A model generated the notes under the pieces. That model saw only the letters and a list, made by a program, of their open reading frames with translations, had not been told where the DNA came from and searched no databases. DNA of 64,000 nucleotides from Candidatus Hydrogenedentota bacterium. Its GTDB lineage: Bacteria > Hydrogenedentota > Hydrogenedentia > Hydrogenedentales > SLHB01. Below, piece after piece: positions 5,558-24,205 of this stretch. The position numbers were made by a program, and so were the translations under genes. The stretch covers positions 96,001 through 160,000 of the forward strand of contig CAVUWV010000036.1 in the NCBI GenBank assembly GCA_963745075.1, read 5' to 3'. Numbering within the stretch: position 1 is the stretch's first letter; each line of letters begins with the position of its first letter.

Positions 5558-6262
5558 CTATCGCGTCGGAGGACGGTTCAACGGGCGAATCTCCAACTCG
5601 CTGATCACGGTCCCCGACGCCGTACGCAGCACGTTCGCGCACGCTTCCCCCACCTCTTCCGGCGCAACCTTCCACTCCGCATCTTCATCCGGGTCGTGGC
5701 GGTGCGACGCCGAATCCACCGAACCCGGGTATACAGTCGTTACCTTGATGCCGAAATCCCGGACTTCTTGAAACAACGACTGGGAGAATCCCGTGACCGC
5801 GTACTTCGTCGCCGCGTATCCGCTGCCGCCGGGCAACGGCACCTTCCCGGATATCGATGACACGTTGACGATGTGCCCGCTGCCCTGCCGTTTCATGTGA
5901 GACAGCGCCGCCCGCGTGGCGTAGAACAGGCCGTTGACGTTCGTGTCGATCATCGTCCGCCATTCCTCGAGCGAAATATCGAAGACGTTCTTGCGGATGA
6001 CTAGGCCCGCGTTGTTAATAAGCGCATCAACGCCACCGAAATGTTCCACCGCCGCACTGATGGCGTATTCCGTGGCGTCGGGGTCGCGCAAGTCGCAGGC
6101 CACCGAGAAGCACTCGCCGTCCTGCTCCTCGATGCTCTGCCGCACGTCTTCCAACAGATCCTTGGACCGCGCCAGCATGGAAACCTTGAACCCGTCCATC
6201 GCGAGAAATGTGGCAATACCGCGCCCAATGCCCTTGCTCGCACCGGTGACTATCACACGCAC
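5558..6262 (-). CDS. SDR family oxidoreductase
   Basis: TGASKGIG, NNAG, YAATK. Confidence 0.92.
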   Translation of the reverse strand: MRVIVTGASKGIGRGIATFLAMDGFKVSMLARSKDLLEDVRQSIEEQDGECFSVACDLRDPDATEYAISAAVEHFGGVDALINNAGLVIRKNVFDISLEEWRTMIDTNVNGLFYATRAALSHMKRQGSGHIVNVSSISGKVPLPGGSGYAATKYAVTGFSQSLFQEVRDFGIKVTTVYPGSVDSASHRHDPDEDAEWKVAPEEVGEACANVLRTASGTVISELEIRPLNRPPTR

Positions 6263-6391
6263 TTCGCAACCCTCCCCTCGTTCCTTGCAAAGGCTATCTC
6301 AAGACCCGCGTCCACCGTCATTCTGAGCGCGGGACCTCCTTCGGGGGATGTCTGCCCAAAGAACAACTCAGCCTGAATGTTGCCCTGTTTC

Positions 6392-7351
6392 CTATGCCCG
6401 GTATATCAAAAAGCCGATATAGGCGAAGTAACTTGCGAGGAGCACGAATCCTTCCCCGCGTTGAATGGAATACTTCTCGCGCCCCGTGAGCATAAACAGA
6501 AACAGCAACGCCGTGGAACCGATCATCACGCCGATATCGACGTTGTTGACGGACGAAAACGGCAGCGGATGAATAATGCTGGTCACGGCTAACACGAGAA
6601 ACACGTTAAAAATATTCGAACCGACGATATTCCCCACGGCGATGTCGGAGTTCTTCCGGTACGCGGCCACCGCGGACGTTGCAAGTTCGGGCAGCGATGT
6701 GCCAATCGCCACGACCGTCAAACCGATTACGTCATCGCTCACGTTGAACGTCCGCGCGATCGCCGTGGCGCCGCCGACCACCCATTGCCCGCCCAGCGTC
6801 AGACCGATCAGCCCAAACACAACCCGCAGCAGCGAGCGCGGAATCGTTTCCGAGACTTCGGGCACTTCGGCGACTTTCGAGCCGCTCGTGCGGACGACCT
6901 CGTAGACGTAATACAAGAACAGAATCAGAAAACTGAGCAACACCAATCCGTCGGTCCGGCTGAGCACGTTTTGCGCGGCCCCGTCGATGAGCCGGTCGTT
7001 GGGAAGGATCGCTACCAGTACCGCAGCCAGCATGCAAAAAGGGATTTCCTTGCGGGCCGTTCCCGCCGACGCGTACACGGGGCTGATAATGGACGCCACG
7101 CCGAGCACCAGCAATACATTGGCGATGTTGCTCCCCACCACGTTGCCGATCGCGATTCCGGTCGCCCCCCTCGCCGCCGCGAACACGCTCACGATCAGTT
7201 CCGGAAGGGACGTGCCCAATGCAACGATCGTCATACCGATGATCAGTTCGGAAACGCCAAGGCGCTTCGCGATGGACGACGCGCCGCCCACCAGAAAGTC
7301 CGCCCCCTTGATCAGGAAGACAAAACCGGCAATCAGTACTACGTAGCTCAA
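6392..7351 (-). CDS. Calcium/sodium antiporter (YrbG/CaCA family)
   Basis: Two GTSLPEL alpha repeats with GNVVGSNI and GNIVGSNI; likely TTG start at 7351. Confidence 0.92.
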   Translation of the reverse strand: MSYVVLIAGFVFLIKGADFLVGGASSIAKRLGVSELIIGMTIVALGTSLPELIVSVFAAARGATGIAIGNVVGSNIANVLLVLGVASIISPVYASAGTARKEIPFCMLAAVLVAILPNDRLIDGAAQNVLSRTDGLVLLSFLILFLYYVYEVVRTSGSKVAEVPEVSETIPRSLLRVVFGLIGLTLGGQWVVGGATAIARTFNVSDDVIGLTVVAIGTSLPELATSAVAAYRKNSDIAVGNIVGSNIFNVFLVLAVTSIIHPLPFSSVNNVDIGVMIGSTALLFLFMLTGREKYSIQRGEGFVLLASYFAYIGFLIYRA

Positions 7352-7582
7352 TGGACTTCCTTTTCCTGAATTGACGCAAGAACGCGAAACACGCCCGAAG
7401 CCCGCCTCGACGCGGCCCGTCCACGTGCAACGAGGATTCCCTATTGTACAGATAGCGAATGCTACAGTGAATTTCGGCCCGTGGGAGGCCGAAGGGGCGG
7501 CAAGATGCACGCGACGAAGTTCCCTCGTGGAATCTTCCGCCAACGTGGGAGACCGGATTGTCAGCAACCCGGTGGATGGTGC

Positions 7583-7738
7583 CTATTGCTGATCGCCGAG
7601 CTTGGTAATCACGACGTCACACTTTTTGCCGTCTTCGCTCGTGTCCTGATTGCAGTTGATGGTGATTTTGACGCCATTGGTTTGAACGGCGTATCCGGGC
7701 AACATTTTGGCCTTCGAATGCGAACCGATATGTTTCAT
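7583..7738 (-). CDS. Small peptide 2 (51 aa, MKHIGSHSKAKMLPGYA...C...KKC)
   Basis: GGAGG RBS 10 nt upstream of ATG 7738; N-terminus resembles the adjacent peptide. Confidence 0.7.
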   Translation of the reverse strand: MKHIGSHSKAKMLPGYAVQTNGVKITINCNQDTSEDGKKCDVVITKLGDQQ

Positions 7739-7839
7739 AACACTCCGACCTCCGCACTCCCGAGCGGAAAAATCCGTCCACCCGGGCAGATCTTCCGCTT
7801 CCTCGTAATTGTAATCGATCAACGCGTGCTCAAATCGCC

Positions 7840-7998
7840 CTAATACACCACCCCACCTTTGTACGCCTTGCATTCGCACTTCTTCCGTTCCAACCCCGTG
7901 AGGCCCGCACACGGGTCCACAATACCGGGCCCCTTCGTTTCGGCGAGAACAGGCAGCTTCTTCAGGCTCGAATTGATCTTCAGATGCTTCATCTTCAT
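7840..7998 (-). CDS. Small peptide 1 (52 aa, MKMKHLKINSSLKKLPVLA...C...KKCEC), absent from ORF track
   Basis: GGAGG RBS 9 nt upstream of ATG 7998; TAG at 7840-7842; GC3-biased codons. Confidence 0.7.
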   Translation of the reverse strand: MKMKHLKINSSLKKLPVLAETKGPGIVDPCAGLTGLERKKCECKAYKGGVVY

Positions 7999-8144
7999 GA
8001 CACTACGCCTCCACCTTGAAATGCAAATCGCCAGACTCGGTCACCGGTAAGCAGCCTGGTCCCTTCACACAGATTACAACTGAGTTCACGAAGCGTTTCC
8101 CGCAAGGACCATTGCGACGCCGGGTTGTTCGGACCAAGCGCGTC

Positions 8145-8900
8145 CTACATCTTCATCTTCTTGAACTGCCAATCCGGGACATGACGGATGATGAGCATGA
8201 TGTACCGCCAAAACCACGGTACGTAGACGGTATTCTTGCGCTTGACGATGGCTGCGCACATGGCCTTGGCGGCCTGTTGCGGCGAGGCAACGAGGAACAG
8301 TCCCGGCAGGCCGAAGGTCATTTTCGTGTCTACGAAGCCGGGCTTGATCGTCGTCACGTGAACGCCCCGGTGATAGAGCCGGTTCCGCAAGCCTTCCAGA
8401 TACGCGCTCAAGCCCGCTTTGGATGCGCCGTAGATGTAATTGCTCTGACGCCCCCGATCGCCGGCCACGGAAGATATTGCCGCGATGAAGCCCGACCCCC
8501 GTTCTTCAAAATACGCCGCAAACTTTTCCAGCAAGGACACGGCGGACGTCAGGTTCACGTCAATCGTTCGCCGCGCGATATCGAATGCGGCCTGGGCATG
8601 CTCCTGCTCGTCCATAAAACCGTAACACAACACGACGCCGCCCAGTCCGCCATTGCCGGCCTCCACACACTGCGCGACGAAACCCTCGTGCGATTCAAAA
8701 TCCTCCGCTTCCAGGAGCAGCGGGATCGCATCCACCCCGCACCGCGTCCGGATATCCGCCGCGATGGTCTCCGCTTCTTCCTCATCGCGCGCGGCGAGCA
8801 CCACCGTGTTTCCCGCCCCGGCAAACTCATCCGCGAGCGCCCGGGCCATGGCCGACGTGGCGCCAAGCACAGCAATGGTTTCCTGCGCAGGCTCGCTCAT
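8145..8900 (-). CDS. SDR oxidoreductase, DprE2-like
   Basis: LGATSAMA, SSVAGDRGRQSNYIYGASK, KPGFVDTKMT; coupled to DprE1-like gene. Confidence 0.85.
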   Translation of the reverse strand: MSEPAQETIAVLGATSAMARALADEFAGAGNTVVLAARDEEEAETIAADIRTRCGVDAIPLLLEAEDFESHEGFVAQCVEAGNGGLGGVVLCYGFMDEQEHAQAAFDIARRTIDVNLTSAVSLLEKFAAYFEERGSGFIAAISSVAGDRGRQSNYIYGASKAGLSAYLEGLRNRLYHRGVHVTTIKPGFVDTKMTFGLPGLFLVASPQQAAKAMCAAIVKRKNTVYVPWFWRYIMLIIRHVPDWQFKKMKM

Positions 8901-10309
8901 GATTCTTCATCCTTCGCCAAGTGCAGCCGCCGCGCCATGCGCGAGGACAAGATCCCCTGCGGATCCAGTCTGTGCCGCTCCTTCCGGAATTCTCCCACGC
9001 GCGGATACATGGCCGCGAATGCCTCCGCGTTCATGCACATATCCTTGGCAAGATACAGACGCCCTCCGTACTCGAGCACGAGCCGGTCGCACTCCGCCAG
9101 GAAGGCCAGCAACCCTTCCCGAATCGGAATGTCCAGCGTCAGCGTGTACCCTTCAAAGGGATACGACAAGAGCCCCGGCCCTTGCGGTCCGAATCGCTTC
9201 AGCACGGCCAGGAACGACGCGCACGAGGCCGCGCTGAGCCGTTCCAGCAAGTTGATTAGACCCTCCTCCCGGCCCGTGGGAAACGTCGCCTGATACTGCG
9301 TGAATCCGCGCTTCCCGTAAATGCGGTTCCAGTTGTGGACCGCGTCGAGCGGGTAGAAGTACGAGTCGTAATCGATGATTTTTCCGTCCGACGACGGATG
9401 GGCCGCGTAAAAAAACGCGTTGAACGTCTTGATGCTCAACGGATTCAACACGATCCCCGGAAAATCGAAAGGAACCCCGGGCTTCTTGCGGGCGCGCGCA
9501 CCAAACGGGTCGTTAGTAACGGCCGGCAGTGCATCCGCCGCCGCGTGTTCGCCGAGCATCAGAACCGAACGCCCAAGGCTCTTGCCTTTCGCCAGACAAT
9601 CCACCCACGCCACCGAATACTGGTAGTCCGCATCCGTCTCGCGGATCGTATCCAGCGTCTCATGGATGTTTTTCAGACGCCGGTAATCGACCTTCATATA
9701 CGCACTCTCGACGCGTTGCAGCCGCACCTTCGCCGTGAGAATCACTCCTGTCAACCCGATACCGCCCACGGTGGCCCAAAACACCCCCGGTTCCACATCG
9801 GCCGAACACACGATTCGTTGTCCAGTCGGCGTCAAGAGCGTCAGCTCGAGGACGTGCGCGCTGAACGTACCGTCGCGATGGTGATTCTTCCCATGCACGT
9901 CGTTGGCGATCGCACCGCCCACCGTGACGTACTTCGTGCCCGGAGTCACCGGTAGAAACCACCCCCGCGGGAGGAATACTTCGAGGATTTCCGCGAGACT
10001 GACGCCCCCTTCGCACTCCAGAACGCCGGCGTCATCGGCAAAGGCCAACATCCGGTTCAACCGGACCGTCGAGAGCACACCGCCCCCGCCGTTTACCGCC
10101 GTATCGCCGTAGCTGCGGCCCAACCCCCGCGCGATGTAGTGCGGTTGTTGGTCCGACTCCAGGATTTCGGCGACCGTCCGGCGCTTTTCCGGCCGGAACA
10201 CGGCGCATTTCTCCGCCGGATATCGGCCCCAACCGGATAGGTTTTGTGTCGACGACGGAATCAATGCATACCCCACATTTCGCGAAACGGATCGAATTAT
10301 AGAACCCAC
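8897..10309 (-). CDS. FAD-binding oxidoreductase, DprE1-like (true start probably nearer 10265)
   Basis: LSGWG, IARGLGRSYGD, PVTPGTKYVTVGGAIANDVHGKNHH, GGRLYLAKD. Confidence 0.9.
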   Translation of the reverse strand: MGSIIRSVSRNVGYALIPSSTQNLSGWGRYPAEKCAVFRPEKRRTVAEILESDQQPHYIARGLGRSYGDTAVNGGGGVLSTVRLNRMLAFADDAGVLECEGGVSLAEILEVFLPRGWFLPVTPGTKYVTVGGAIANDVHGKNHHRDGTFSAHVLELTLLTPTGQRIVCSADVEPGVFWATVGGIGLTGVILTAKVRLQRVESAYMKVDYRRLKNIHETLDTIRETDADYQYSVAWVDCLAKGKSLGRSVLMLGEHAAADALPAVTNDPFGARARKKPGVPFDFPGIVLNPLSIKTFNAFFYAAHPSSDGKIIDYDSYFYPLDAVHNWNRIYGKRGFTQYQATFPTGREEGLINLLERLSAASCASFLAVLKRFGPQGPGLLSYPFEGYTLTLDIPIREGLLAFLAECDRLVLEYGGRLYLAKDMCMNAEAFAAMYPRVGEFRKERHRLDPQGILSSRMARRLHLAKDEES

Positions 10310-10350
10310 GGATCGAGGGTTACAACGGTATCACGCGGACGGCGTGCCCC

Positions 10351-10800
10351 CTATGATAGTCCCATCGATTGGTCGGGCAGCGGAGGCAGGGGAGCGCCGC
10401 GGCCGAATAGCTGCTTTACCGATTCGCGCGACAACACCACCAGGGTGAATATACCCAGGATCGTGCCAAAGGGAAACGACAAACATTCCAACGCCCCGAT
10501 TACCATGCAGAAAACATAGTGCGTTTGACGCGCCAGGAATCGACCGGCCAGGAACAGACAAAGCGCAACCGCAACGCCCAGAAAAAGGAAAACAGCGGCC
10601 ACCAGGACGAACACGACAGCCAAGGTTTGCGCCTGCTCCACATCACCTTCCATCTCTTGCGCGAATTCGGGAGATATCAGTATCACCAGACCCAGCGCCA
10701 TATACAGCACCGGAAACAACGACGCCACCATCGTCAACCCGGCACAAACGTAGTGAAAAATAGACAGCAGTTTCAGATGATCCAGGTCTTCCTTTCGCAT
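10351..10800 (-). CDS. Hypothetical membrane protein (3-4 TM)
   Basis: DHLKLLSIFHYV, hydrophobic helices, FPFGTILG...LSRESVK; GGAGG RBS. Confidence 0.75.
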   Translation of the reverse strand: MRKEDLDHLKLLSIFHYVCAGLTMVASLFPVLYMALGLVILISPEFAQEMEGDVEQAQTLAVVFVLVAAVFLFLGVAVALCLFLAGRFLARQTHYVFCMVIGALECLSFPFGTILGIFTLVVLSRESVKQLFGRGAPLPPLPDQSMGLS

Positions 10801-10956
10801 GCCCAGTTCCTCCCCTGGCGGTGACCCCGCAGCTTTACTGTACCCGCGTTGATGCCTCGATTGCCATTGTCCGGGCAAATCCGTTGTTCGCCCCTTCTCC
10901 TCGTGCTACACTCTCTTGATACGGAACGCTGTCGTGGATCGCTGGAGTAGTTCGCC

Positions 10957-12048
10957 GTGAAGGATATCAAGAACGTTCGATGGGCTCGCTGGATGTGTTT
11001 CGCCGTCGTGCTGAGCGTCGGCTGCGGCTATATCGCGGACAAAGACCGCATCAAGATCGCCCGCGTAGACGGCGACTACATCACCCGGGGTGATCTCGAA
11101 CAGGCTATCCGCACCATGTCGGCCGACGAGCGGCCCATCATCCGGACCAAGGGCGACGTGCGCCGGGCCCTCGAGAATCTCATCGATAAACAAATCAAAG
11201 ACGAACTGGCCGACGGGATGCGCAAAGAGGGCAAGATTCACGTGGACCGGGAACTCGCCCGGCAGATCACCATAGCGAAGCACCCCGAACAATTCGTCGA
11301 TATCAAGAACCCGGAAGATTACGGCCAGGAAGAGGGCTCGGAGCAATACAGGAAACAGGAGCAAGAGTACCTCATTGACGACGAGGTGCACCGGCTCGAA
11401 GCCGAGCAGGCCGTATACTTGAAGATCAAGGAAGCCGTGGAAAATGGCACGCTCAAGCCCACGGAACAGGAGTACCAGCAGGAATACGACCTGCGCAAAG
11501 AAGATCTGAAACATCCCGAGCGCATCGCTATTTCCGGCCTCCTCATCCCCGGCTCCGGGGAAGCCAGTGTCGGTGCGGCATCCGCCGTGCGCGGCCGCTT
11601 GGCTACCGGCGAATCCGCCGAAGATATCGCAAGCGAGATGCGCAACGTGAATGCAAGCGTGATTGAGTCCGCTCTGGAAAACAGCGGCAACGCCAAGTAT
11701 GCCGGTTTCTGGCAGCAGGCTTCCGGCGCGCAGAAGGGCGACATTCTCGGCCCCATCTACGTGACCGGTTGGGAGGCCATCCGACAAAACGCGCAGGGCC
11801 AGAGCGTCGCGCAACGACTACCCGACGGCGTGCTCGTTTGCAGAGTCACCGATTATACGCCCCCCGTACAGATGACCTTGGAAGAAGCCAAACCGGAACT
11901 CGACCGCGACATCCTCTACGCCAAAATGATGGACCTGCTACGCAAAGAGCACGGCGTGGAAATCTACGACGACAACCTGCCCGATCCGTCCATGTACGAA
12001 ACGGGTCAGTCGGTCATCCTCCAGCAACAGCGCAACATGGGCCAGTAA
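10957..12048 (+). CDS. SurA/PrsA-like parvulin chaperone lipoprotein
   Basis: Lipobox SVGC; IARVDGDYITRGDL, ALENLID, degenerate PPIase segment, MTLEEAK. Confidence 0.65.
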   Translation: MKDIKNVRWARWMCFAVVLSVGCGYIADKDRIKIARVDGDYITRGDLEQAIRTMSADERPIIRTKGDVRRALENLIDKQIKDELADGMRKEGKIHVDRELARQITIAKHPEQFVDIKNPEDYGQEEGSEQYRKQEQEYLIDDEVHRLEAEQAVYLKIKEAVENGTLKPTEQEYQQEYDLRKEDLKHPERIAISGLLIPGSGEASVGAASAVRGRLATGESAEDIASEMRNVNASVIESALENSGNAKYAGFWQQASGAQKGDILGPIYVTGWEAIRQNAQGQSVAQRLPDGVLVCRVTDYTPPVQMTLEEAKPELDRDILYAKMMDLLRKEHGVEIYDDNLPDPSMYETGQSVILQQQRNMGQ

Positions 12049-12096
12049 TGGCACGAACCGGCAAAAACCTCGCCGTAATTCCCAATTCGTAATGGC

Positions 12097-13605
12097 TCAC
12101 GTCGCCGCCCTTGCGGCCGCCGTGGGCGGACGCAACGGGCGTTGCGCCGCCGGTTCGGCCTGCGCTGCCGCCTGTGTGCGCCTTTCCTGAATGTAGTTTT
12201 CGATGGCGATCGTGCGGCTGATATTCGCCAACGCGATGATGAACCAGTAGGGCTCCATGATGCGCACGATGAGAAACGAGATCGTGCCCAGGGAGTGGAC
12301 GATAAGCGCAAGGGTCGTCACGAACGCGCCCAGCGACACGCCGCGCGCGACCCAGTCCGTCGACCAGAGATACCCCTCCCGCGTCGTTTTGAGCAGGCGC
12401 ATCTGTAGAAAGACGAACGCGATAAATCCGATAATCCCGCTTTCGATCAGGACCCGGGCATACTGACTGTCGAGGACCCGGTCCCACGACACACCACCCC
12501 CGAACCACGGCCAAATCCGGAGATTGTACCGCACCTTCTGCCATACGTAGAGCCGTTCGTGCGTCGACTTATCCACCTGCAGCCCGGTGTCATATTCCCC
12601 GATGGCCACCTCCTGGCCGCTGCCTCGTTGAAACGTGTAGTTGACTCGATCCTTCACGTCATCCGGCATGATAAAGGGCGAGGCGATCAGCACCACCATC
12701 ACCGCCACGATGATGGATGGCTTTCGCGACGCAAGTCCCAATACCACCAACCCCGCGATAAACGCGATATACGACGCACGCGACAAGGTGAACAGGAACG
12801 GGAAGAACGCGACCAGAGCGAGACACAGCATCCCCCGCCGCAGCCCTTTGGTCGGCGCTTGGGTATACAGCGCCGCTGCGATGCACATCACCATCACCAG
12901 GTAGCCGCCCAGTGTGTTCGGCTCGGTCCCGCCCTTCTCAAAGGGCGTGCTGACGCGTTCCATCCCGCTGACGAATCGCGTGTAAAGCCCAAACAACGAC
13001 ACGATCATCGCCACGACAAAGAACACGCCTAGCTGTTGCCGCATCTGTTTCACATTCCGAATCGAATTACCCACAAGCACGAAGATCATGTAGAACTCGG
13101 CCATCTTGAGCATCGTAAACAGCGCTTCCTTCTTGTCGAAAAGCGGAATGGAAGCTCGATAGGCCAGCATGGTCGAAAACAAACAGACTCCGTAATAGGC
13201 GGTGATTCCCGGATTGATCGGACTGGGCAGCCAGAGCGATTTGCGCCCTTCAAAGGCAAGTTTTACCAGCGCACCGACAAAGACTACGATAATCAGACCG
13301 TCGTTGTACCGCAGGTTGAGCATGCGATTGCCCATGCCCACCTTGCCCGCTTCGATTTCGGGCGACAGAAGCATGGCCACGATCAGGAAAAAGACCCCCA
13401 GCTCCACCCGCAGGATCGTCAAACCGAAGATCAGCAGGCTCACACCAACGGCGATCGTGATCGTCAGGTTCTGGAAAACACTGTGAAGGACCAGCAGCCC
13501 GATGGCCGACAACAGCATGAACCCGACAAAGAACGGAAACTCGACGCTACTTTCCGCAATTTCACCGCGGCCGACACCGTACTGGGAACGCTGAAACAGG
13601 GCCAC
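12097..13605 (-). CDS. O-antigen ligase / Wzy polymerase family membrane protein
   Basis: About 12 TM; EPNTLGGYL, FTLSRASYIA, PWFGGG, LDSQYARVLIESGIIG; GTG start at 13605 with GGAG RBS. Confidence 0.85.
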   Translation of the reverse strand: MALFQRSQYGVGRGEIAESSVEFPFFVGFMLLSAIGLLVLHSVFQNLTITIAVGVSLLIFGLTILRVELGVFFLIVAMLLSPEIEAGKVGMGNRMLNLRYNDGLIIVVFVGALVKLAFEGRKSLWLPSPINPGITAYYGVCLFSTMLAYRASIPLFDKKEALFTMLKMAEFYMIFVLVGNSIRNVKQMRQQLGVFFVVAMIVSLFGLYTRFVSGMERVSTPFEKGGTEPNTLGGYLVMVMCIAAALYTQAPTKGLRRGMLCLALVAFFPFLFTLSRASYIAFIAGLVVLGLASRKPSIIVAVMVVLIASPFIMPDDVKDRVNYTFQRGSGQEVAIGEYDTGLQVDKSTHERLYVWQKVRYNLRIWPWFGGGVSWDRVLDSQYARVLIESGIIGFIAFVFLQMRLLKTTREGYLWSTDWVARGVSLGAFVTTLALIVHSLGTISFLIVRIMEPYWFIIALANISRTIAIENYIQERRTQAAAQAEPAAQRPLRPPTAAARAAT

Positions 13606-13627
13606 CGTTAGGGTCTCCGATAGGAAC

Positions 13628-13804
13628 AAATCCGAAATCCAGAATCCAAAATCCAAAACAATTTCAAATGTTCAAATTTCCGAATTGCGAAAACATCCGT
13701 CGCGGTGACGGTTCCGTCACGGTGCAGAACCCAACTGGTCTTGGTCATTCTAGTTTCGGTCATTTGATTTTGTTTCGGATTTCAAGACTCGATATTCGAG
13801 CTTT
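13628..13804. repeat. Heptamer-repeat (AAATCCA/G) inverted element between wzc and wzy-like genes
   Basis: AAATCCG AAATCCA GAATCCA AAATCCA on the left; complementary degenerate arm TTTGTTTCGGATTTC...GATATTCGAGCTTT on the right; AT-rich. Confidence 0.7.
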
Positions 13805-16122: not shown

Positions 16123-17640
16123 TCAGTTTCTCCGGGATTCCGTCACGTCTTGCGGTTGTCGTATCGCGGGACCCACAATCTTCGAATTCGCCGTCACGTC
16201 CAGCATCCGATCCCACGTCACCGTCTCCGGGGACTCATGGACCGTCGGCGTCAGAAACATCATCAGCTCCGTCTGGGCATGCGACTTCTCCGTGTGCTTG
16301 AACAGATTGCCCAACAGCGGAACCTTACCCAACCCGGGCACCCGCTGCTCCACGTCCTGCAGATCGTTGCGGTAAATACCGCCCACGACCAGGGTCTGTC
16401 CGTCGCGCACGTTGGATTCGCCCTGGTATTTCCGTACGGATCGAATCGGAATTCCATTGCTGGACCCGGTGGGGGAAGAAACCTCCGGCTCGAACTCCAG
16501 TTTCACATAGGTCCCTTTGTCATCCTTGAGCACATGCGGCGTCACGGCCATCTTGATTCCCAAATCGAGAAAACGCACGGAGAAATTCTCCCGGCCCGAC
16601 GCCTCGATACCGAATTCCGTGTACGGAAATTCATCCACCATCGAAATCTCGGCCTTCTTATGGTTCACCGTGAGAATGTTCGGATTGGCCAGCAATTCAG
16701 CTTGGTTGTCCGCGACCAAGGCATCCAACAGCATCCCGAGATCGACTTGCTGGTTCATGAGCCCGAAAAACATCTGTCCCACTTTCGGGATTTGCGCGGG
16801 CACATTGAGCAGACGGTCAAAGGTCGTTCCGTCCACAAAGCTTCGCCCCCTGTCGTTGTTTTGGTTTCCGTTTCCATTTATCCCGCCAAAATTTTCGTTG
16901 TTCAGAGGGGATGCCGACTGTCCCTTCAAGGCGTTGATATTTGTGTCCTGGCTTGGCAATGGGTAATAGCCCCCGTTCACATCCGTTCCTTGGACGAACC
17001 AGCGAACGCCCAACTCTTTCATCGCGCCGGCCTTCACCTCTGCGATCTTCGCTTCGATGCGCACCTGCGTGAGTTGGCTCTGCATCTTGTCCAGTCGCGC
17101 CGTCACATTGAGAATGTTCTGAATCGCGTCCGGCGTATCCGTTATGATTAGACTGTTCGTATCCGGATCGTACGCAATACTACCGCCCGCGGACGTCATC
17201 CCCTGTAACGCCACGCTGAGCGTTTCCGCGTCCGCATTATTCAGCGGGAGAATCTCCGTCTTCATGTCCGGCATCCGGTAACCGCCGCCAATCTCCGGCG
17301 CCGTTCGCGACACGGTCACGCGCGGATTCTTCAACACCGACGAAAGGGCCGTGCGTATCCGCGCCGAGGCTTCGTTCTCCGACAAACCGGCGATGGTAAC
17401 GTTTCCGATGAACGGAAGCTGAATGTTTCCGTCGCTGTCGATTTGCGTCGTCGTCGACACTTCCGGCCGCCGGTAAACGTCGACGAAGACCAGTTCGCCG
17501 GGCTCCAAGACGCCCTTGGGCGCTGGAACGTCCTGTGTCGCCGCCGGCAATGCAGCCAGCACCGCCACCAGCCACACGATCCATTGTGGACCGGACCGGT
17601 CACGCAGTTGCGGTTCGCGTTCTCTCAGATGACGTATCAC
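16123..17640 (-). CDS. Fusion: Wza-type polysaccharide export domain + secretin N domain + secretin core
   Basis: LEPGELVFVDVY...IDSDGNIQLPFIGNVTIAGLS...NPRVTV; YDPDTNSLIITDT; QVRIEAKIAEV, ANPNILT, DGQTLVVGG, VPGLGKVPLLGNLFK, TELMMFLTPTV; GTGA overlap with upstream gene. Confidence 0.9.
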   Translation of the reverse strand: MIRHLREREPQLRDRSGPQWIVWLVAVLAALPAATQDVPAPKGVLEPGELVFVDVYRRPEVSTTTQIDSDGNIQLPFIGNVTIAGLSENEASARIRTALSSVLKNPRVTVSRTAPEIGGGYRMPDMKTEILPLNNADAETLSVALQGMTSAGGSIAYDPDTNSLIITDTPDAIQNILNVTARLDKMQSQLTQVRIEAKIAEVKAGAMKELGVRWFVQGTDVNGGYYPLPSQDTNINALKGQSASPLNNENFGGINGNGNQNNDRGRSFVDGTTFDRLLNVPAQIPKVGQMFFGLMNQQVDLGMLLDALVADNQAELLANPNILTVNHKKAEISMVDEFPYTEFGIEASGRENFSVRFLDLGIKMAVTPHVLKDDKGTYVKLEFEPEVSSPTGSSNGIPIRSVRKYQGESNVRDGQTLVVGGIYRNDLQDVEQRVPGLGKVPLLGNLFKHTEKSHAQTELMMFLTPTVHESPETVTWDRMLDVTANSKIVGPAIRQPQDVTESRRN

Positions 17641-19877
17641 GAGGTGCCCTCTTCGTTCCCATCCGCCTCGGCGGAAGGGCCGGTTGATTGCGGGTTCGGG
17701 CTGCGAATGATCAGTTCCTGGCCGACAAAAATGACACTCTGGGAAAGGTCGTTCCACTCCATAAGGTCCGCCACACTTACGCCGTGCGCCGCCGCGATCC
17801 CGGACAAGGTGTCGCCCGCGACTACTTGGTACACGGCTTCCGTCGCCGGCACTTCAACCTGCGCCTCGATTTCGGATGCCTCCGCCGGCGCGGCGGAATC
17901 CGGCTCCGTCGAGTCCGGTTGCTCCATCGATCCCGCGTCGCTTTCGGGTTCTGACACCGGTTCGGAAGGCGTATCCGCCTTGTCGGTTCCTTCTTCCAGC
18001 GCGGGCGCCGTCGCTTCCCACGGGACATCGTCTTCCGGTGCAGTGGCAGATGAGGAATCGGCCGCGCTGTCGTCCGCCCCGTTCGTCTGTTCTTCCACCG
18101 CGGCCGCCTCGTCCTTCTGGCTGCGTTCGCGAAGGACGTCCATCTTCGCGCGCAACTCTTTCTTAGTCGCGGGATCGATCCCCGGGCTCTGTACCGCATG
18201 GGTCCATTCCACCACCGCGAGCTGTTCGCACTCGCCACGTTTCGCCGGTGCTTGTGCGCGCTCGGCCAAGGCCCGGTACAACGTGCCGAGTTCCGTATAG
18301 TCCACGTCCGGGGTATGGTTGTCCTGCATCCCAACCGCCTGAAGATAGTACGATCGCGCCGAGTCGTCCTGGCCCAACTTCGCGTACGAGCGCGCGAGGA
18401 TTCGCACCGCCGGCACCGCGGCCATCGGATCCAGCAGGCGTAGCTCCGGATCGCGCAGTAGCTCGATCGCTTGCTGATACTCGCCAAGCTCGTAGTACAG
18501 CCGCCCCATCAAGGTCCGCGCTCGCGGCGCCTTTGCGTGCGTCGGGTACGCATCCAGAAATTGCTTGAACATTTCGATCGATCGCGTATACACCTGCTGG
18601 CGTTCATCCACCGACGATGGTTGCAGCAGTTGCAAGGTGAATGCCGCTGCAAACTGGGCATCCGCCCCCAACTCGCTTCCCGGGTTCCGCTTTGCAAACG
18701 CTGCGTAAGTAGCTGACGCCTGCCGGTACTCCCCTTTCGCGGCCATCGTGACCGCCTCGTTATAAAGCGCCGTGGGGTTCGATACGTTTTCGTCGTACCA
18801 CGTATACGCCTCGTAACCACCTACGGCCACGGCCGCCAGTACAATAAGTCCCGCCGCCACGCGCAACATGCGGCGGCGTGCATCCTTTCGATGTCCCGAA
18901 CGGCGGCGGCGCGTCTTGGGTCCCGTATGGCGGAGATACATCGCCTCTTCCGCCTCTTCAATCGTCGGAATCCGTACACGTTCGCCAAGCTCCTCCGGTG
19001 CGACCGGCGGCTCCACATTCAAACCGCCTGACGGCCGCGCGGGGGAGGGCTCTTCCACCGCTTCAAACGGAACGGAAGACACCGGTTCAGCCGCGGACGG
19101 ATCGAGCGTTTTCTCGACTTCCCGCAGACTGGGCTCCGGCGCTTCTTCTTCCACCGGTGAAAACTCAAACGGCGCGGCCTCTTCCAACGGCGGCGCGGCA
19201 TCAGCCGATATTTCTTCGGGGTGTTCCTCCACCGGCGCCGGCTCTTCGGGCGGCTCAACCGGGGGTTCCGGCTCCGCGGCTTCCGGGGGCGATACGGCTT
19301 CCTCCAACAAAGGCGGAGGAGGTTCCAACGGCACATCGGCCACCGGCGCCGCTTCTTCGGCGGATTCGGCGCGGGGCGTCAATTCAAACGGGGCGGATTC
19401 CTGCTCTGCCGGTGACGGCGTCCCCGCTTCGGGTCCGCGAGCTTCTTCATCTTTCGTCAATTCCGCGATCATGTCGCGGAGGTGCTCCATCGCCGCACGA
19501 TTATCCGATTCCGACGGGTATTCCTGTTCCGGTGGCGGTTCATTGTCCACCGTGGGCGCCATGGAGGAATCTACGTCAGCGACACCCTCTTCATAAAAGC
19601 TCAGCGGTTGTTCGGGATCCAGATCCCGCGTCGGCTCGGGTTCGGGTTCGGCAGGGGGTGGAGTTTCCGGTTCGGCAGGCGGCGGTGCGGTCAGCCCGCT
19701 CATTTGAATGAATTCGAGGTCGCCTCCGCGTTCCTCAGGCGAGACTCCGCTGTCAAGACGCGGATCCGCTTGGAGACCCTCCTGAATTTGTTCGTCAAAT
19801 TCATCGAACGGGGCTTGGGAGTCTTCCTCCGGTTCGCGTCCTTCCTCGTCCTCGTGATTGTCAGGATGCTTCGTCAT
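17637..19877 (-). CDS. Membrane-anchored TPR + LysM protein with long acidic/Pro-rich N-terminus
   Basis: About 320 aa E/P-rich region, Arg-rich stretch, one TM, BamD/YbgF-like TPRs, C-terminal LysM YQVVAGDTLSGIAAAHGVSVADLMEWN. Confidence 0.85.
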   Translation of the reverse strand: MTKHPDNHEDEEGREPEEDSQAPFDEFDEQIQEGLQADPRLDSGVSPEERGGDLEFIQMSGLTAPPPAEPETPPPAEPEPEPTRDLDPEQPLSFYEEGVADVDSSMAPTVDNEPPPEQEYPSESDNRAAMEHLRDMIAELTKDEEARGPEAGTPSPAEQESAPFELTPRAESAEEAAPVADVPLEPPPPLLEEAVSPPEAAEPEPPVEPPEEPAPVEEHPEEISADAAPPLEEAAPFEFSPVEEEAPEPSLREVEKTLDPSAAEPVSSVPFEAVEEPSPARPSGGLNVEPPVAPEELGERVRIPTIEEAEEAMYLRHTGPKTRRRRSGHRKDARRRMLRVAAGLIVLAAVAVGGYEAYTWYDENVSNPTALYNEAVTMAAKGEYRQASATYAAFAKRNPGSELGADAQFAAAFTLQLLQPSSVDERQQVYTRSIEMFKQFLDAYPTHAKAPRARTLMGRLYYELGEYQQAIELLRDPELRLLDPMAAVPAVRILARSYAKLGQDDSARSYYLQAVGMQDNHTPDVDYTELGTLYRALAERAQAPAKRGECEQLAVVEWTHAVQSPGIDPATKKELRAKMDVLRERSQKDEAAAVEEQTNGADDSAADSSSATAPEDDVPWEATAPALEEGTDKADTPSEPVSEPESDAGSMEQPDSTEPDSAAPAEASEIEAQVEVPATEAVYQVVAGDTLSGIAAAHGVSVADLMEWNDLSQSVIFVGQELIIRSPNPQSTGPSAEADGNEEGTS

Positions 19878-20976
19878 GGAGTTCTGTCAACAAGACCCTG
19901 TCGGGATTCGTTCGCGCAGCCTTTAACAGAAGCCGGTTCGCGCGCGACGTCGACACCGTACCCGCCCGGCGCTGGCCGGCAACGGAACCGGCCGGCCGCA
20001 GCGAGTCTTCCAGTTCAATCGGCATTTCATGGGCCGGACGCGGCGCCTTCATAAACCGGTCGGCGATTCGCGCACGCTTCTCGTCGTCCGGCAGCGTCGT
20101 CTTTTGAATCGTGTGTAATACGATAGCCTGTCCAATATGCCGCGTACGCAGTTGGCACGCCAGCAACAACGCGTTCCGGCACAAGGTCACCGTCACCCGC
20201 GGGCTGCCCTCCGCGTACGAATGAATCACTTTCACCGCGTCGTCGTCAAACTCCGGGCCCCGTTCCGAAGCCCCGGCCTGGCGCAGCCGGAAATCGATGA
20301 GGCTCCGCGTGTCCCGTTCGCTCAGCGGACCCAGCGTATACGTCATGTTTACCCGTTGCTCGAAATTGGGCGCCGCCCGCAACACGTGCATCCACTCCAA
20401 CTGAGCGAACAGGATCAGATTGATCAGTTTGTGCTGCGGCGTCTCCAGGTTCTGCACAAGACGCAACAATTCCAACTGGCCACGCTTATTCAGATTCTGC
20501 GCATCGTCGATAATAAGCGTGTTGATTCGTTCGCGTTTCGTCAACAGGTAGTGGTACAACGACTCCATGTACCCCACAAAAGACCGCGTTTCCGGCCGCA
20601 AGCCGAACTGCGTGACGATGCTCTCAAGAAGCGAAAAACTGGTCCAGGACGGAATGGGCGACGCGATCACCGCCGTGTTGTACCGGTCCGAACGGGTCCG
20701 CATCCCCGTGAGCAGCTTGCGCAACAACGTGGTCTTGCCCGTGCCGTAGCTGCCGAGCACCACCGCGATGCCGTGCCGCTCGTCGACCGTGTTCCAGAGA
20801 TGAAAAAGACACTCCCGGTGGGCGTTGGTGGCGTAATAGTACGCGGGATCCGCCGTCGCCGCGAAGGGTTGTTCGGTCAGGCCAAAGTGGTCCAGCAACG
20901 ACAATCCCGTGCGTCCCATTCCCGGCTCGTCCGGACCCCAAACGTCTTCGTTCGGCGTGGCCGCGTGTCCATTCAT
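19861..20976 (-). CDS. ExeA/GspA-family AAA ATPase (no TM or PG-binding domain)
   Basis: HFGLTEQPF..TADP, Walker A GSYGTGKTT, LIIDDAQNL, LELLRLVQNLET, FRLRQAG. Confidence 0.9.
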   Translation of the reverse strand: MNGHAATPNEDVWGPDEPGMGRTGLSLLDHFGLTEQPFAATADPAYYYATNAHRECLFHLWNTVDERHGIAVVLGSYGTGKTTLLRKLLTGMRTRSDRYNTAVIASPIPSWTSFSLLESIVTQFGLRPETRSFVGYMESLYHYLLTKRERINTLIIDDAQNLNKRGQLELLRLVQNLETPQHKLINLILFAQLEWMHVLRAAPNFEQRVNMTYTLGPLSERDTRSLIDFRLRQAGASERGPEFDDDAVKVIHSYAEGSPRVTVTLCRNALLLACQLRTRHIGQAIVLHTIQKTTLPDDEKRARIADRFMKAPRPAHEMPIELEDSLRPAGSVAGQRRAGTVSTSRANRLLLKAARTNPDRVLLTELHDEAS

Positions 20977-21233: not shown

Positions 21234-21262
21234 ATTCTAGCCAAGCGCTTAGAGGGTGTCAA
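21234..21262 (-). promoter_or_regulatory. Sigma70 promoter of the ExeA/secretin/Wzc operon
   Basis: TTGACA-N17-TAGAAT on minus strand. Confidence 0.7.
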
Positions 21263-21454: not shown

Positions 21455-23221
21455 ATGAAGCGCGAGTTTCTTGTACTCCTCTCTGGACCGCTCCAAGGAA
21501 GCGAGCGGGACATCGTCGGGTCGTTGACGATCGGGCGCAGTCCGGAAAATGGCTTGCAACTGAACGACTTACAGGTCTCGCGCAAACACGCCGTCATCCA
21601 GCAGACGCCCGCCGGCACCATTGTCCGCGACCTCGGCAGCGGCAACGGCACATATATTGGGGATCGCCGCGTGCTTGAGTACCGCCTCTCCGACGGCGAT
21701 GTTATCCGCATCGGTCCCATGGATATGAAGTTCGAAATCCGCGTCGGCGATGCCATGACCACCCCGCGCCCCGTCCAGAGTCCGCCCGAGGGTTCCGACC
21801 CGCGCCAGAGCGTTCGGTTCCATGCCGAAGAGTCGGCCAGCAAGATCGAGGCAAACGCCGCAGATAACGTCTACCGCACCTTCTTCCAGGCCCCGCAGGA
21901 CGCCGTCAGCGCCGAGCAGTTGCGGGACGCGCAGAACCGCCTCGCCGCGGTCTACGAGGCCAACCAAATCATCTCGAGCGAGCGGGATTTACGGAAACTC
22001 TTCGAGCGCGTGATGGACCAGATCTTTGGTCTCGTCCCCGCCCACAACGGCGTTATCCTCCTCAAAGACGAGCGGACCGGCGAACTCGTAACCGAATACG
22101 TCAAGCGGGGCAACAAACAGTCGGAAGTCGCCATGAGTTCGAGTATTGTCTCACGCGCCTTCGAGAACGGCGAAGCCGTAATCACCTACAACGCCGCGAG
22201 CGATGCCCGGTTCGAGACGGGCGCCAGCATCATTGCCCAGAACATTACATCCGCCATGTGTACCCCCCTCAAGCACCAGAACGAGATCCTCGGCATCATC
22301 TACGTCGATACCCGCGGCACACAGAACGCCTTTGCCCAGCGCGATCTCGAATTGCTCGTCGCCGTCTCCGGACCCGCGGCCACCTCGATCCGCAACGCCC
22401 AGTATCTCGCCAAAATCCAAAAGGCCTACCAGGACACGCTCATCGCCCTGGCCAACGCCATCGAACTCCGCGACCACTACACGGTTGGCCACACCTGGCG
22501 CGTGACCAACTTCGCCCTCGAAATCGCCCGGACCCTCGAGTGGTCCGAAGAAAAGCTCCGCGAATGTGAAATGGGCGGCGTGCTGCACGACGTCGGCAAA
22601 ATCTCCATCGACGACGCCGTCCTGCGCAAGCCCGGCGGACTTACCGAGGACGAGTTCGCCCAGATGCGCGTCCATCCCGAACGCGGTGCCCGCATGATGC
22701 AGGACATCGAATTCCTTGTTCCCCTGATTCCTTATGCCCTCTACCACCACGAGCGGTATGACGGCAAAGGATATCCCTTTGGATTGAAAGGCGAAGAGAT
22801 CCCCTTGGAAGGACGTCTCCTCGCCGTGGCCGATACGCTGGACGCCATGACCAGCAACCGGCCGTATCGGAAAGGCCTCGATCCCGAGTTCGCCATCTCG
22901 GAGATTGAAAAGGGCAAGGGCTCCCAATTCGATCCCGTCATTGTCGACGCGTTGATCAAATGCTACCGCGACGGCAAAATCGACCGCATCCTTCAGGACT
23001 ACTACAAGAAAGACGAGAAGAGCGTCGCGTGCCCCTTCTGCAGCACCTACATCCGGTTACCGGAAAATGCCTCGGTGGACTTCGAGTTTCAGTGCGGCGT
23101 TTGCCACCGCCAAATCCGTTTGCAGCAGCAAAATGAGGCCTACTTCGGCGAGCTCGTCACTCGAAACGACTCGTCCCCGTCAAGCTCCTCCTCCTCGGAC
23201 GATTCCGAGCCCGCGGAGTAA
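21455..23221 (+). CDS. FHA-GAF-HD-GYP phosphodiesterase with C-terminal zinc ribbon
   Basis: TIGRS...VSRKHA...GSGNGT; GAF SAMCTPL; HDVGK, HHERYDGKGYP, RPYR; CPFC...CGVC. Confidence 0.92.
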   Translation: MKREFLVLLSGPLQGSERDIVGSLTIGRSPENGLQLNDLQVSRKHAVIQQTPAGTIVRDLGSGNGTYIGDRRVLEYRLSDGDVIRIGPMDMKFEIRVGDAMTTPRPVQSPPEGSDPRQSVRFHAEESASKIEANAADNVYRTFFQAPQDAVSAEQLRDAQNRLAAVYEANQIISSERDLRKLFERVMDQIFGLVPAHNGVILLKDERTGELVTEYVKRGNKQSEVAMSSSIVSRAFENGEAVITYNAASDARFETGASIIAQNITSAMCTPLKHQNEILGIIYVDTRGTQNAFAQRDLELLVAVSGPAATSIRNAQYLAKIQKAYQDTLIALANAIELRDHYTVGHTWRVTNFALEIARTLEWSEEKLRECEMGGVLHDVGKISIDDAVLRKPGGLTEDEFAQMRVHPERGARMMQDIEFLVPLIPYALYHHERYDGKGYPFGLKGEEIPLEGRLLAVADTLDAMTSNRPYRKGLDPEFAISEIEKGKGSQFDPVIVDALIKCYRDGKIDRILQDYYKKDEKSVACPFCSTYIRLPENASVDFEFQCGVCHRQIRLQQQNEAYFGELVTRNDSSPSSSSSSDDSEPAE

Positions 23222-23449: not shown

Positions 23450-24205
23450 ATGGTGTGGAAAACTTGGATGACAGCAGCGACGGTAGCGGGGATTGCAGCG
23501 GTAGCCCTGGTAGTGGCGCCGGCCTTGGCGCAGACAGACGATAAACCCGCAACGGCCAAGCAGGAAAACACGGCCGCCCCCCAGACGGACAAAGCCGACA
23601 CAAACACCTGGCAACCCGGTCAGGGCCGGGGACGCGGCCAGGCCAATGCCGCCGGCCGGGGACAAGGTCCACGATTTGAAGATGCGGACAAGGACGGCAT
23701 CTGCGACAATCGTCCCGTCGCCAAGGGGCGTGGCCAAGGTCGCGGCCGTCAGATGGCCGGCCCGGGCCAGGGACAGGGGCGCATGCACGCTAACGCGCAG
23801 GGTCCCGGACAGGGCCGCGGGAAAGCCATCGGCCAGGGACAAGGCCAGGGCCGTGGACGCCAGATGGCCCAAGGCGGTCAGGGTCGCGGCCGGATGCACG
23901 GTAATGCCAATGGTCCCGGCCAAGGCCGAGGCTATGGCATGGGCCAGGGTTCCGGACATGGCCAGGGCCGCGGCTATGGCATGGGCCAAGGTCCCGGACA
24001 AGGCCAGGGCCGCGGCTATGGCATGGGCCAAGGTCCCGGACAAGGCCAGGGCCGCGGCTATGGCATGGGCCAAGGTCCCGGACAAGGCCAGGGGCGCAAC
24101 AAGGCGATGATGGACTGTGGCCAGGGCCGTGGGTTCGGTAACGGCCAAGGCCGTGGCCAAGGGTATGGGTGCGGTAACGGCCAGTGCCGCTGCATAAACC
24201 GCTAG
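23450..24205 (+). CDS. Secreted Gly/Gln/Arg-rich repeat protein
   Basis: Signal peptide ending ALA; FEDADKDGICD; GQGQGRGYGMGQGP repeats; Cys-rich tail; AGGA RBS. Confidence 0.8.
   Translation: MVWKTWMTAATVAGIAAVALVVAPALAQTDDKPATAKQENTAAPQTDKADTNTWQPGQGRGRGQANAAGRGQGPRFEDADKDGICDNRPVAKGRGQGRGRQMAGPGQGQGRMHANAQGPGQGRGKAIGQGQGQGRGRQMAQGGQGRGRMHGNANGPGQGRGYGMGQGSGHGQGRGYGMGQGPGQGQGRGYGMGQGPGQGQGRGYGMGQGPGQGQGRNKAMMDCGQGRGFGNGQGRGQGYGCGNGQCRCINR
23912..24097 (+). repeat. Coding tandem repeat, 42-nt unit
   Basis: GGTCCCGGACAAGGCCAGGGCCGCGGCTATGGCATGGGCCAA units starting 23948 (variant), 23990, 24032, 24074 (partial). Confidence 0.9.

Follow-up and report, generated by a model that had tools for sequence, protein, structure and literature searches.

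We analyzed a 64,000-nucleotide stretch of a Candidatus Hydrogenedentota genome (hereafter the window; GCA_963745075.1, contig CAVUWV010000036.1, positions 96,001 to 160,000 of the forward strand) and focused on a gene in which a Poly_export domain, the D1 domain of OPX (outer-membrane polysaccharide export) proteins, is fused to a secretin. This fusion is the third gene of a packed five-gene operon, in the order ExeA-like ATPase, TM-TPR-LysM protein, fusion, Wzc and Wzy-like protein (TM, transmembrane helix; aa, amino acids; BY-kinase, bacterial tyrosine kinase). The features below are given by window position.

21234-21262 (-): sigma-70-type promoter candidate, TTGACA-17-TAGAAT, 11/12 match, ~260 nt 5' of the ATPase gene
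19861-20976 (-): ExeA/GspA/MshM-like AAA ATPase, 371 aa, no TM (AAA_22, E 5.6e-17)
17637-19877 (-): TM-TPR-LysM bitopic inner-membrane protein, 746 aa (TM at aa 337-355; LysM, E 1e-14; TPR matches)
17640-16123 (-): fusion gene, one frame without stops, 505 aa
17539-17640 (-): signal peptide of the fusion, ~aa 1-34, Sec (SPI-type), with a basic n-region, hydrophobic aa 20-38 and no Cys
17308-17520 (-): Poly_export / OPX D1, aa 41-111, class-3-like (PF02563, E 2e-18, 66.7 bits vs a cut-off of 28)
17266-17307 (-): linker from D1 to N3, ending in a conserved R122-x3-M126
17074-17259 (-): single Secretin_N, an N3-type ring-building domain, aa 128-189 (PF03958, E 1.7e-13)
16123-17067 (-): secretin beta-barrel domain, aa ~192-468 (PF00263 at aa 307-467), and a C-terminal tail of ~40 aa
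13874-16117 (-): Wzc-type co-polymerase with a fused BY-kinase, 747 aa (TIGR01007, 187 bits vs a cut-off of 108)
12097-13656 (-): Wzy_C-family membrane protein of polymerase or O-antigen-ligase type, ~10 predicted TM (PF04932, E 1e-8, over cut-off)

The fusion is a genuine, conserved protein

The fusion starts on a GTG that runs into the stop codon TGA of the gene before it (GTGA), with a GAGGG purine stretch 5' of the start. By hydropathy, aa 20-38 form its sole N-terminal hydrophobic stretch, and none of its 505 residues is a cysteine; it therefore has no lipobox, and its leader is an ordinary signal peptide, whose cleavage site we placed by eye. Among 79 homologues, four lipobox-like matches were rejected because they fall within the hydrophobic region. 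Within D1, the DGNIQLPFIGNVTIAGLS motif occupies aa 70-87, and 390 residues follow the domain. The linker counts 14 aa in the window and 13-19 aa across 79 homologues. The secretin match itself (nt 16722-16240, E 2e-40) lies in a barrel domain that carries an apical insert of ~85 aa (aa 213-298), and a Pfam scan of the fusion returned no SLBB, STN/N0 or Wza_C at E<=0.01. An earlier note on this DNA had described a single frame running from a signal peptide through Poly_export and one Secretin_N to a secretin, with no SLBB, lipobox or C-terminal Wza helix; Pfam, the structural model and the absence of Cys agree with that description, and its domain coordinates fall ~10 nt or less from the Pfam limits.

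An AlphaFold2 model built from the 79 homologues (mean pLDDT 78, pTM 0.56) is of high confidence in D1 (pLDDT 87-97), confident in N3 and the barrel, and low in the linker (at aa 116-118) and the apical insert. Modeled D1 (aa 43-114) matches the class-3 OPX protein WzaB (9N9A) with Z 13.2 and a root-mean-square deviation of 1.4 A over 72 aa, compared with Z 10-11 for the Wza fold. Its profile likewise aligns ungapped on WzaB (E 4e-9) and with an 11-residue gap on Wza: D1 is of the loop-less class-3 type, without the 11-residue loop of Wza. The rest of the protein is a secretin, with aa ~124-488 matching GspD/ExeD/PilQ and pIV secretins (Z 12-13.6), N3 matching secretin N domains (Z 8-11) and Foldseek assigning the secretin part to GspD/PilQ (E 1e-17). 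What we take to be the PROSITE secretin signature pattern is satisfied by 56/79 homologues.

We confirmed that the fusion is a genuine protein and not an assembly chimera. A homologue search retained 506 proteins out of 8000 scored candidates, and domains were read in the best 120. PF02563, PF03958 and PF00263 occur together in 118 of these (the window's own protein included), the two exceptions being a 397-aa protein without PF02563 and another without a PF03958 call. Homologues with organism names come mostly from Ca. Hydrogenedentota. At E<=1e-60, the fusion is present in 64/135 genomes of the window's GTDB phylum (44/86 of the high-quality ones) and has no match in two whole families (f3, 0/23; f8, 0/10). 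A contig of an independent public run (X2) covers positions 17170-17373, across the D1-N3 junction, with one base different. The doubts that the earlier note had raised, namely that the N-terminal region might not belong to PF02563 or that the junction might be chimeric, are thus answered by the E 2e-18 match, by the 118 three-domain proteins and by X2. Mean pairwise identity across 43 orthologues is 52% in D1, 55% in N3, 61% in the core, 25% in the linker and 20% in the signal peptide, and the D1 codons differ from those of a related locus (L002) by 26 synonymous and 9 non-synonymous changes. D1 is under purifying selection, as is the rest of the fusion. Records labeled Nitrospirales, Nitrospiraceae and Bathyarchaeia also carry the operon (51-80% identity); they are likely mislabeled and were left out as extra phyla.

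The operon, its decay and its second lineage

The gene order around the fusion is conserved. Among 49 fusion loci, Wzc comes next in 48, and the contig of the 49th stops within the fusion; the Wzy-like gene is found after it in 42, and ahead of the fusion lie the TPR gene (44 loci) and the ATPase gene (37 loci), all misses falling at contig or locus ends (five loci start inside the fusion and 12 begin too close for the ATPase). The Wzc start lies 5 nt past the fusion stop in the window and 3-8 nt past it in 40/42 loci, with Wzc starts for these counts chosen by script as those closest to the expected position. No Wzc was found near ordinary secretins (0/30 loci), and, apart from the fusion, the operon has no OPX or beta-barrel gene and no pilin, PilM/N/O or type II secretion system (T2SS) gene. 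Upstream of the ExeA-like gene, a promoter site of at least 10/12 matches is found in 34/35 related loci, as compared with 0/35 on the opposite strand, 1/35 in shuffled sequence and 4/322 random 500-bp genome windows, which suggests steady, housekeeping-type expression of the operon. A terminator scan stayed at chance level (7 vs 9.9 expected).

The ATPase is a putative secretin-assembly ATPase. Its score against TIGR03015 (157.8 bits) is under the cut-off of 324.5, and it is nearer to the secretin-adjacent ATPases of Omnitrophota loci L157/L180 (~35% identity, 150-152 bits) than to the ATPase of the genome's own ordinary OPX locus (29%, 113 bits), which suggests that it came along with the secretin. 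The TM-TPR-LysM protein, a putative secretin scaffold or peptidoglycan anchor, has an acidic/Pro-rich N-terminal half, periplasmic TPRs at ~362-520 and a C-terminal LysM at 683-724 (Pfam, hydropathy); its match extends to the LysM region in a minority of loci only. Wzc combines two TM (34-52 and 445-463), a long helical arm without a jellyroll, a Walker A motif (EGKTT) and a C-terminal Tyr cluster, and matches E. coli Wzc (9R62) at E 4.5e-38. Residues G560-K561-T562 and Tyr 727/728/731/732 are invariant across 42 orthologues, and the protein has the make-up of the Wzx/Wzy-dependent pathway's PCP-2a with BY-kinase (PCP, polysaccharide co-polymerase). The Wzy-like protein probably starts 14-25 codons inside its open reading frame (ORF), downstream of 13656, since its relatives in L002/L003/L015 have an in-frame stop in the first ~20 codons. 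Its sole NCBIfam match is TIGR03097, the exosortase-associated O-glycosylation ligase (45.8 bits vs a cut-off of 188).

A decaying copy of the operon, which both of our genome-count thresholds missed, is found in genome G076 at the following position:

L251 (G076:C4), 6124-13350: decaying operon, fusion frame and D1 kept, secretin signature lost

Its Wzc keeps the Walker A motif and has lost the Tyr run, and the gene after Wzc is adenylylsulfate kinase-like, in place of the Wzy-like gene. The secretin motifs of the fusion, the Tyr cluster of Wzc and the Wzy-like gene have thus decayed jointly, and we count this in favor of the proposed polysaccharide export.

The fusion also occurs in a second lineage. 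Distant three-domain proteins (P0135, P0137) of ~34-37% identity came out of a profile search over 1.84 billion representatives; P0280 and P0281 were added, and their profile recovered a locus (L109) in a record titled Ca. Auribacterota. This locus and that of genome G141 (L254) have the following gene orders (GT, glycosyltransferase):

L109: TPR protein, fusion, PCP, BY-kinase, Wzy_C, GT9, GT4, GT4, GT2, exosortase (EpsH), EpsI
L254 (G141): fusion, PCP, BY-kinase, Wzy_C, GT4 x3, GT2, AsnB, polysaccharide deacetylase, GT4, formyltransferase

From these gene orders, the fusion fills the slot normally held by wza in polysaccharide clusters of the second lineage. In the 1.6-Mb assembly that holds L109 (G135), it is the only Poly_export gene found, and 2/61 sampled genomes of that phylum carry it, G141 being the second. 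Among the loci compared, the PCP and Wzy-like proteins of L109/L254 are the window's closest matches outside its phylum (E 4e-81 and 2.5e-29), and they are nearer to the window's proteins than the window genome's own paralogues are. The stretches covered contain no flippase. The ExeA-like gene is absent from both clusters; the ATPase is therefore not a universal part of the system. The earlier note was silent on the conserved operon, on this second lineage with its glycosyltransferases and on the loop-less class-3 type of D1.

Ahead of the fusion, both clusters have a gene for a RecG-C-terminal-like (HATPase_c_4) domain followed by a TM and TPRs (L109:7816-9942, L254:15108-16772), which stands in for the ExeA and TM-TPR pair. 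The distant fusions P0135, P0280, P0281 and L254:13538-15142 are longer than the window's (524-541 aa), the first three having an additional TPR-like helical tail C-terminal to the secretin.

We investigated the origin of the two halves with one tree for each. In the secretin-core tree (77 rows, a quick method, with outgroups picked by similarity), 21/21 fusion rows fall on one branch, joined by two unfused secretins (SH-aLRT 89); this branch is sister to STN-N-secretin proteins, some of them PilM-linked, and lies apart from named GspD. The D1 tree, with 76 rows over 72 columns, sets the 21 domains of the fusions on one side and 55 ordinary OPX domains, all from one phylum, on the other (88/88). 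By branch support, both trees fit a single origin in which a PilQ-like secretin had its N0 replaced by D1. The exchange of N0 for Poly_export proposed in the earlier note is borne out by the unfused secretins: 14/16 of the top profile matches scanned have STN/N0 in the place of D1, before Secretin_N and the secretin core. A weak search for short D1-only relatives gave nine candidates of 30-276 aa, none of them significant.

Several secretins met in these searches have other unusual layouts. An Omnitrophota locus (L157:7949-13052) has an ExeA-like ATPase and two tandem secretins, and none of its scanned genes encodes a pilus or T2SS motor. P0134, P0148, P0159, P0161, P0166, P0169, P0175 and others are giant secretins of 3,200-5,300 aa, whose ~17-26 matched stretches probably represent N domains in long runs.

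Elsewhere in the window genome we found two ordinary Poly_export-SLBB/PCP loci, two Bac_transf (priming transferase) genes, a Wzx and six Wzy_C matches, and no BBP2_2 barrel or porin (the assembly is 89.7% complete). Its other scanned secretin loci have T2SS or pilus genes alongside, among them an AMIN-STN secretin beside PilM (L106). The two weakest secretin matches of the genome lie on C21. At L104:7858-10378 (G000:C3), a T2SS GspD-like gene between GspC and GspE consists of two overlapping ORFs, one with the N domains and one with the secretin core, and is therefore frameshifted or misassembled.

Three neighbors of the operon complete the picture of the locus. An FHA-GAF-HD-GYP protein with a C-terminal CxxC..CxxC is encoded divergently at 21455-23221 (+) and present in 22/49 loci (57-94% identity); it offers a possible cyclic di-GMP or phospho-signaling link to the operon. 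The gene at 23450-24205 (+), which precedes a kinase and sigma-54 regulator pair, encodes a signal-peptide protein with low-complexity GQGRG repeats, Cys pairs and no Pfam match. On the other side, 2 kb off the operon, lies an FAD-oxidoreductase and short-chain dehydrogenase pair (8145-10309, -), presumably resembling DprE1/DprE2-type sugar epimerase genes and unmatched in the 49 related loci.

Proposed docking on Wzc and the alternatives

D1 is the co-polymerase-contacting domain of OPX proteins (PMC12881504, PMC12819527). In E. coli, Wza without D1 loses co-localization with Wzc, and the interface pairs Wza D99, E102 and Y155 with Wzc K332, Y334, T335 and H338; the Wzc periplasmic domain in isolation did not bind Wza (PMC12881504); in M. 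xanthus, WzaB R106-R107 are required for PCP binding (PMC12819527). We mapped these contacts through the D1 profile alignment, after anchoring the numbering of each chain on the residues named above. E60 of the fusion aligns to Wza E102 (E/D in 41/44) and K104 to WzaB R106 (K/R in 44/44); both lie on PCP-facing loops and are among the best-kept surface positions. In the AlphaFold2 model of Wzc, aa 298-305 form a loop between two arm helices, and position 300, which we mapped by eye to Y334, is aromatic in 42/42. The R-x-Y-T-x-x-H spacing of the E. coli Wzc residues is also seen in the L109 PCP. When the complex between D1 (aa 38-116) and the arm of Wzc (aa 190-420) was predicted, without folded controls, the score was 0.22, under the mark of 0.32, and we count it neither for nor against docking. 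The conserved contact residues give partial support to docking on Wzc. The rewiring to Wzc proposed by the earlier note gains from gene order, with wzc directly 3' of the fusion, as a putative physical link.

Wzc is an octamer. Secretin C-modules are C15 or C14 (PMC10550240), so that a mismatch of symmetry between Wzc and the secretin ring would be expected, as the earlier note had also supposed; secretin N-modules already pair with partners of different symmetry (PMC9239104). Soluble WzaB D1-D2 is monomeric in the absence of its lipid anchor (PMC12819527), and D1 therefore need not build a ring of its own in the fusion.

We propose, with a probability of about 0.68, that a Wzy-dependent polysaccharide crosses the outer membrane through the fusion, which docks on Wzc via D1; Wzc binding, ring stoichiometry and cargo are what we infer. 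The fusion would be exported by Sec, and its N3 and secretin domains would form a gated beta-barrel in the outer membrane, a ring of probably 14-15 subunits as in other secretins. Its way through the peptidoglycan would be eased by the TM-TPR(-LysM) protein and the ExeA-like ATPase, in the manner of GspA/GspB (PMC9239104). On their flexible linkers, the D1 domains would occupy the periplasmic mouth, the usual meeting place of N0 and its inner-membrane partner, and would bind the Wzc helical arm at its tip like the D1 of Wza and WzaB, octameric Wzc engaging only some D1 copies at one time. Repeat units, whose glycosyltransferases and flippase would be encoded elsewhere in the window lineage and adjacent in the second, would be polymerized on their lipid by the Wzy-like protein, and cycles of Wzc phosphorylation would drive the chain through the channel of Wzc and on past the secretin gate. 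The balance tips slightly towards the broader proposal of a fourth kind of polysaccharide translocon, namely a dedicated secretin that exchanged its N0 for D1 in a single, ancient event. As a 14-15-mer on octameric Wzc, it would let a Wzy polymer out without pilus or piston; the module, with a promoter candidate that is near-consensus and of housekeeping type, is kept by about half of one phylum's genomes and recurs in a second lineage.

Several observations weigh against polysaccharide export through a Wzc-docked fusion. The window operon contains no glycosyltransferase or flippase gene, and the 16 ORFs scanned in the downstream regions of 14 loci are mixed, with two glycosyltransferases, of which only that of L025 is on the operon strand. 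The PF04932 Wzy_C family takes in ligases as well as polymerases. The co-occurrence of the fusion and the Wzy-like gene speaks for such export (across the 135 phylum genomes, both are present in 64, the Wzy-like gene alone in two, each 84% complete, and the fusion alone in none), but these counts describe a pattern among kin and not independent events. The genome has two ordinary OPX-PCP loci and so needs no fusion for polysaccharide export. At the interface, the Wza D99 position is R57 in the fusion (R in 43/44), the Y155 position is I/V, the WzaB R107 position is N, and the K332-like position of Wzc is V/A/I. The 8-vs-15 symmetry and the opening of the gate without a pseudopilus are left unexplained.

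Among the alternatives, an unlikely one that survives best is that the secretin exports a protein or glycoprotein (e.g., PEP-CTERM, S-layer), with the D1-Wzc contact only tethering and regulating the pore at the glycosylation site and the Wzy_C protein acting as an oligosaccharyl ligase. Established secretin cargo consists of proteins and pili, the L109 cluster contains exosortase EpsH and EpsI, and the window genome has four PEP-CTERM matches and one exosortase. The sole NCBIfam matches of the Wzy_C protein and the ATPase, to TIGR03097 and the PEP-CTERM-associated TIGR03015, point the same way but are far under cut-off, and the stretch of L254 covered has no exosortase. In Shewanella HM13, a secretin in a polysaccharide cluster does move protein, but with pseudopilins, GspE, GspF and a separate Wza (PMC6971210), whereas the fusion operon has neither pseudopilus nor motor. 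Moreover, the binder of GspC/GspB, N0 (PMC9239104), is gone from the fusion, and a complete PCP whose kinase and Tyr cluster are intact is a hallmark of polymer export.

Less probable still, polysaccharide may be exported with D1 not docked on Wzc, D1 serving instead in folding or assembly through contact with the TM-TPR scaffold, or as a passive glycan-binding funnel. The altered Wza/WzaB contact residues would fit this, as would the TM-TPR gene directly 5' of the fusion in both lineages and the binding of GspB-type scaffolds to the N-terminal secretin domain (PMC9239104). Against it, each OPX D1 examined in PMC12881504 and PMC12819527 binds its PCP, E60 and K/R104 are among the best-kept surface positions, and the fusion is tightly coupled to wzc.

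We consider it improbable that the mismatch does not exist, either through a smaller or D1-templated ring (near 8-12 subunits) or through a cleaved D1 acting as a free class-3 OPX beside the secretin pore. Ring numbers do vary among the structural matches (C12, C13, C14, C15), and the linker varies and is modeled with low confidence; however, N3 and the barrel strands that set ring size are canonical, no octameric secretin is among the matches, and the nine candidates of 30-276 aa in the weak search include no free D1-only relative. Finally, an assembly chimera or a chance neighborhood has a negligible probability even for a 36-contig assembly, 89.7% complete, given full-length homologues of many sources, the 64 genomes, the X2 contig over the junction and purifying selection.

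Comparison with known export systems

The three OPX classes are sorted by the polymer's way across the outer membrane. Secretins, for their part, are associated with T2SS, the type III secretion system, pili and phage extrusion. The fusion has the PF02563 domain of OPX proteins. Classes 1-3, as defined by Saidi 2022, all need an SLBB after Poly_export (bioRxiv 10.1101/2022.02.11.480155), in place of which the fusion has Secretin_N after its 14-aa linker. Nor does it carry the marks of any single class: the C-terminal part is a secretin and there is no Cys, in place of the helical Wza_C pore and lipobox of class 1; no match to the GfcC of class 2 (KpsD) was found, and the folded segments are all accounted for; and no barrel gene lies in the operon, as the separate porin gene of class 3 would, in which nothing follows the last SLBB. 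On the secretin side, the C-module is complete, with PF03958 (N3) and PF00263 over cut-off. The fusion is not a T2SS GspD (TIGR02517, 205 bits vs 351; one N domain, no N0, no gsp genes in the operon), nor a type IVa pilus (T4aP) PilQ, with its AMIN/STN(N0) domains and pilMNOP context (TIGR02515, 193 bits vs 284). Nor is the locus an XrtA/PEP-CTERM exopolysaccharide locus, since TIGR03015/03027/03007/03018/03097 are all under cut-off and no exosortase is found in the window operon.

The nearest published counterparts are the Wza-Wzc system of the E. coli group 1 capsule and colanic acid (2J58, 9R64; PMC12881504) and the class-3 translocon of M. xanthus, in which WzaB/EpsY acts with an 18-strand porin and a PCP (9N9A; PMC12819527, PMC9601211, PMC9603273). 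With the former, the fusion shares the Poly_export D1 fold, the E102-equivalent, an adjacent Wzc with BY-kinase and Tyr cluster, and a Wzy-family neighbor; it lacks the SLBB, the lipid anchor, the alpha-helical Wza_C pore and the 11-residue D1 loop, its pore being a secretin barrel, and the window's Wzc has no jellyroll and a longer arm than E. coli Wzc. The latter gives the best D1 match, its R106-equivalent is always basic in the fusions, and it likewise pairs a D1 adaptor with a beta-barrel exit. In contrast to it, the fusion joins adaptor and pore in one polypeptide without SLBB or lipobox, and its pore is a multimeric secretin and not a monomeric 18-strand barrel.

Other secretins share part of this arrangement. 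PilQ and GspD/ExeD of T4aP/T2SS, with the ExeA/GspA-GspB module (PMC9239104, PMC10550240), have the same N3 and C-module, and an ExeA-like ATPase and a bitopic, partly peptidoglycan-binding partner likewise lie upstream of the fusion; in the fusion, however, N0/STN is replaced by Poly_export, and the operon is without pilins, PilB/GspE, PilC/GspF and PilMNOP. Exopolymer secretion requires the slime-nozzle secretins (PilQ in cyanobacteria, GspD in M. xanthus), which have been proposed as its outer-membrane gates, their tie to synthesis and the passage of polymer being left open (PMC12475490). They are ordinary PilQ/GspD with no known tie to a polymer-synthesis machine, for which the authors suggest a synthase/pseudopilin route (PMC12475490), whereas the fusion's own sequence carries a putative link to the Wzy/PCP machine. 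The P49 cluster of Shewanella vesiculosa HM13 (GspD2, Wza, WecA, Wzx; PMC6971210) also places a secretin in a surface-polysaccharide cluster, but there Wza and secretin are separate, pseudopilins, GspE and GspF are present, and the cargo is protein (PMC6971210).

We found no description of a Poly_export-secretin fusion in the literature searched, which mostly lay outside subscription journals. The word 'secretin' is absent from the relevant parts of PMC9601211 and PMC12819527 and from the supplements of PMC9603273, and a 2026 review (PMC13721041) has no such fusion in its relevant passages. The OPX table of PMC9603273 has at least 27 Hydrogenedentes rows, those listed being all of class 1; further rows might include fusions unremarked.

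Altogether, the fusion fits no OPX class, its operon holds none of the usual secretin machines, and the system is probably a variant of Wzy-type export whose channel belongs to an undescribed class. If true, Wzy polymers would gain a new exit through the outer membrane and secretins a new client machine, and the system would show a gate opening without a pseudopilus and an 8-fold machine meeting a 14-15-fold pore. The question of how secretins connect to polymer synthesis becomes directly testable here, the link being a single fused domain with, in G141 and L109, the synthesis genes adjacent.

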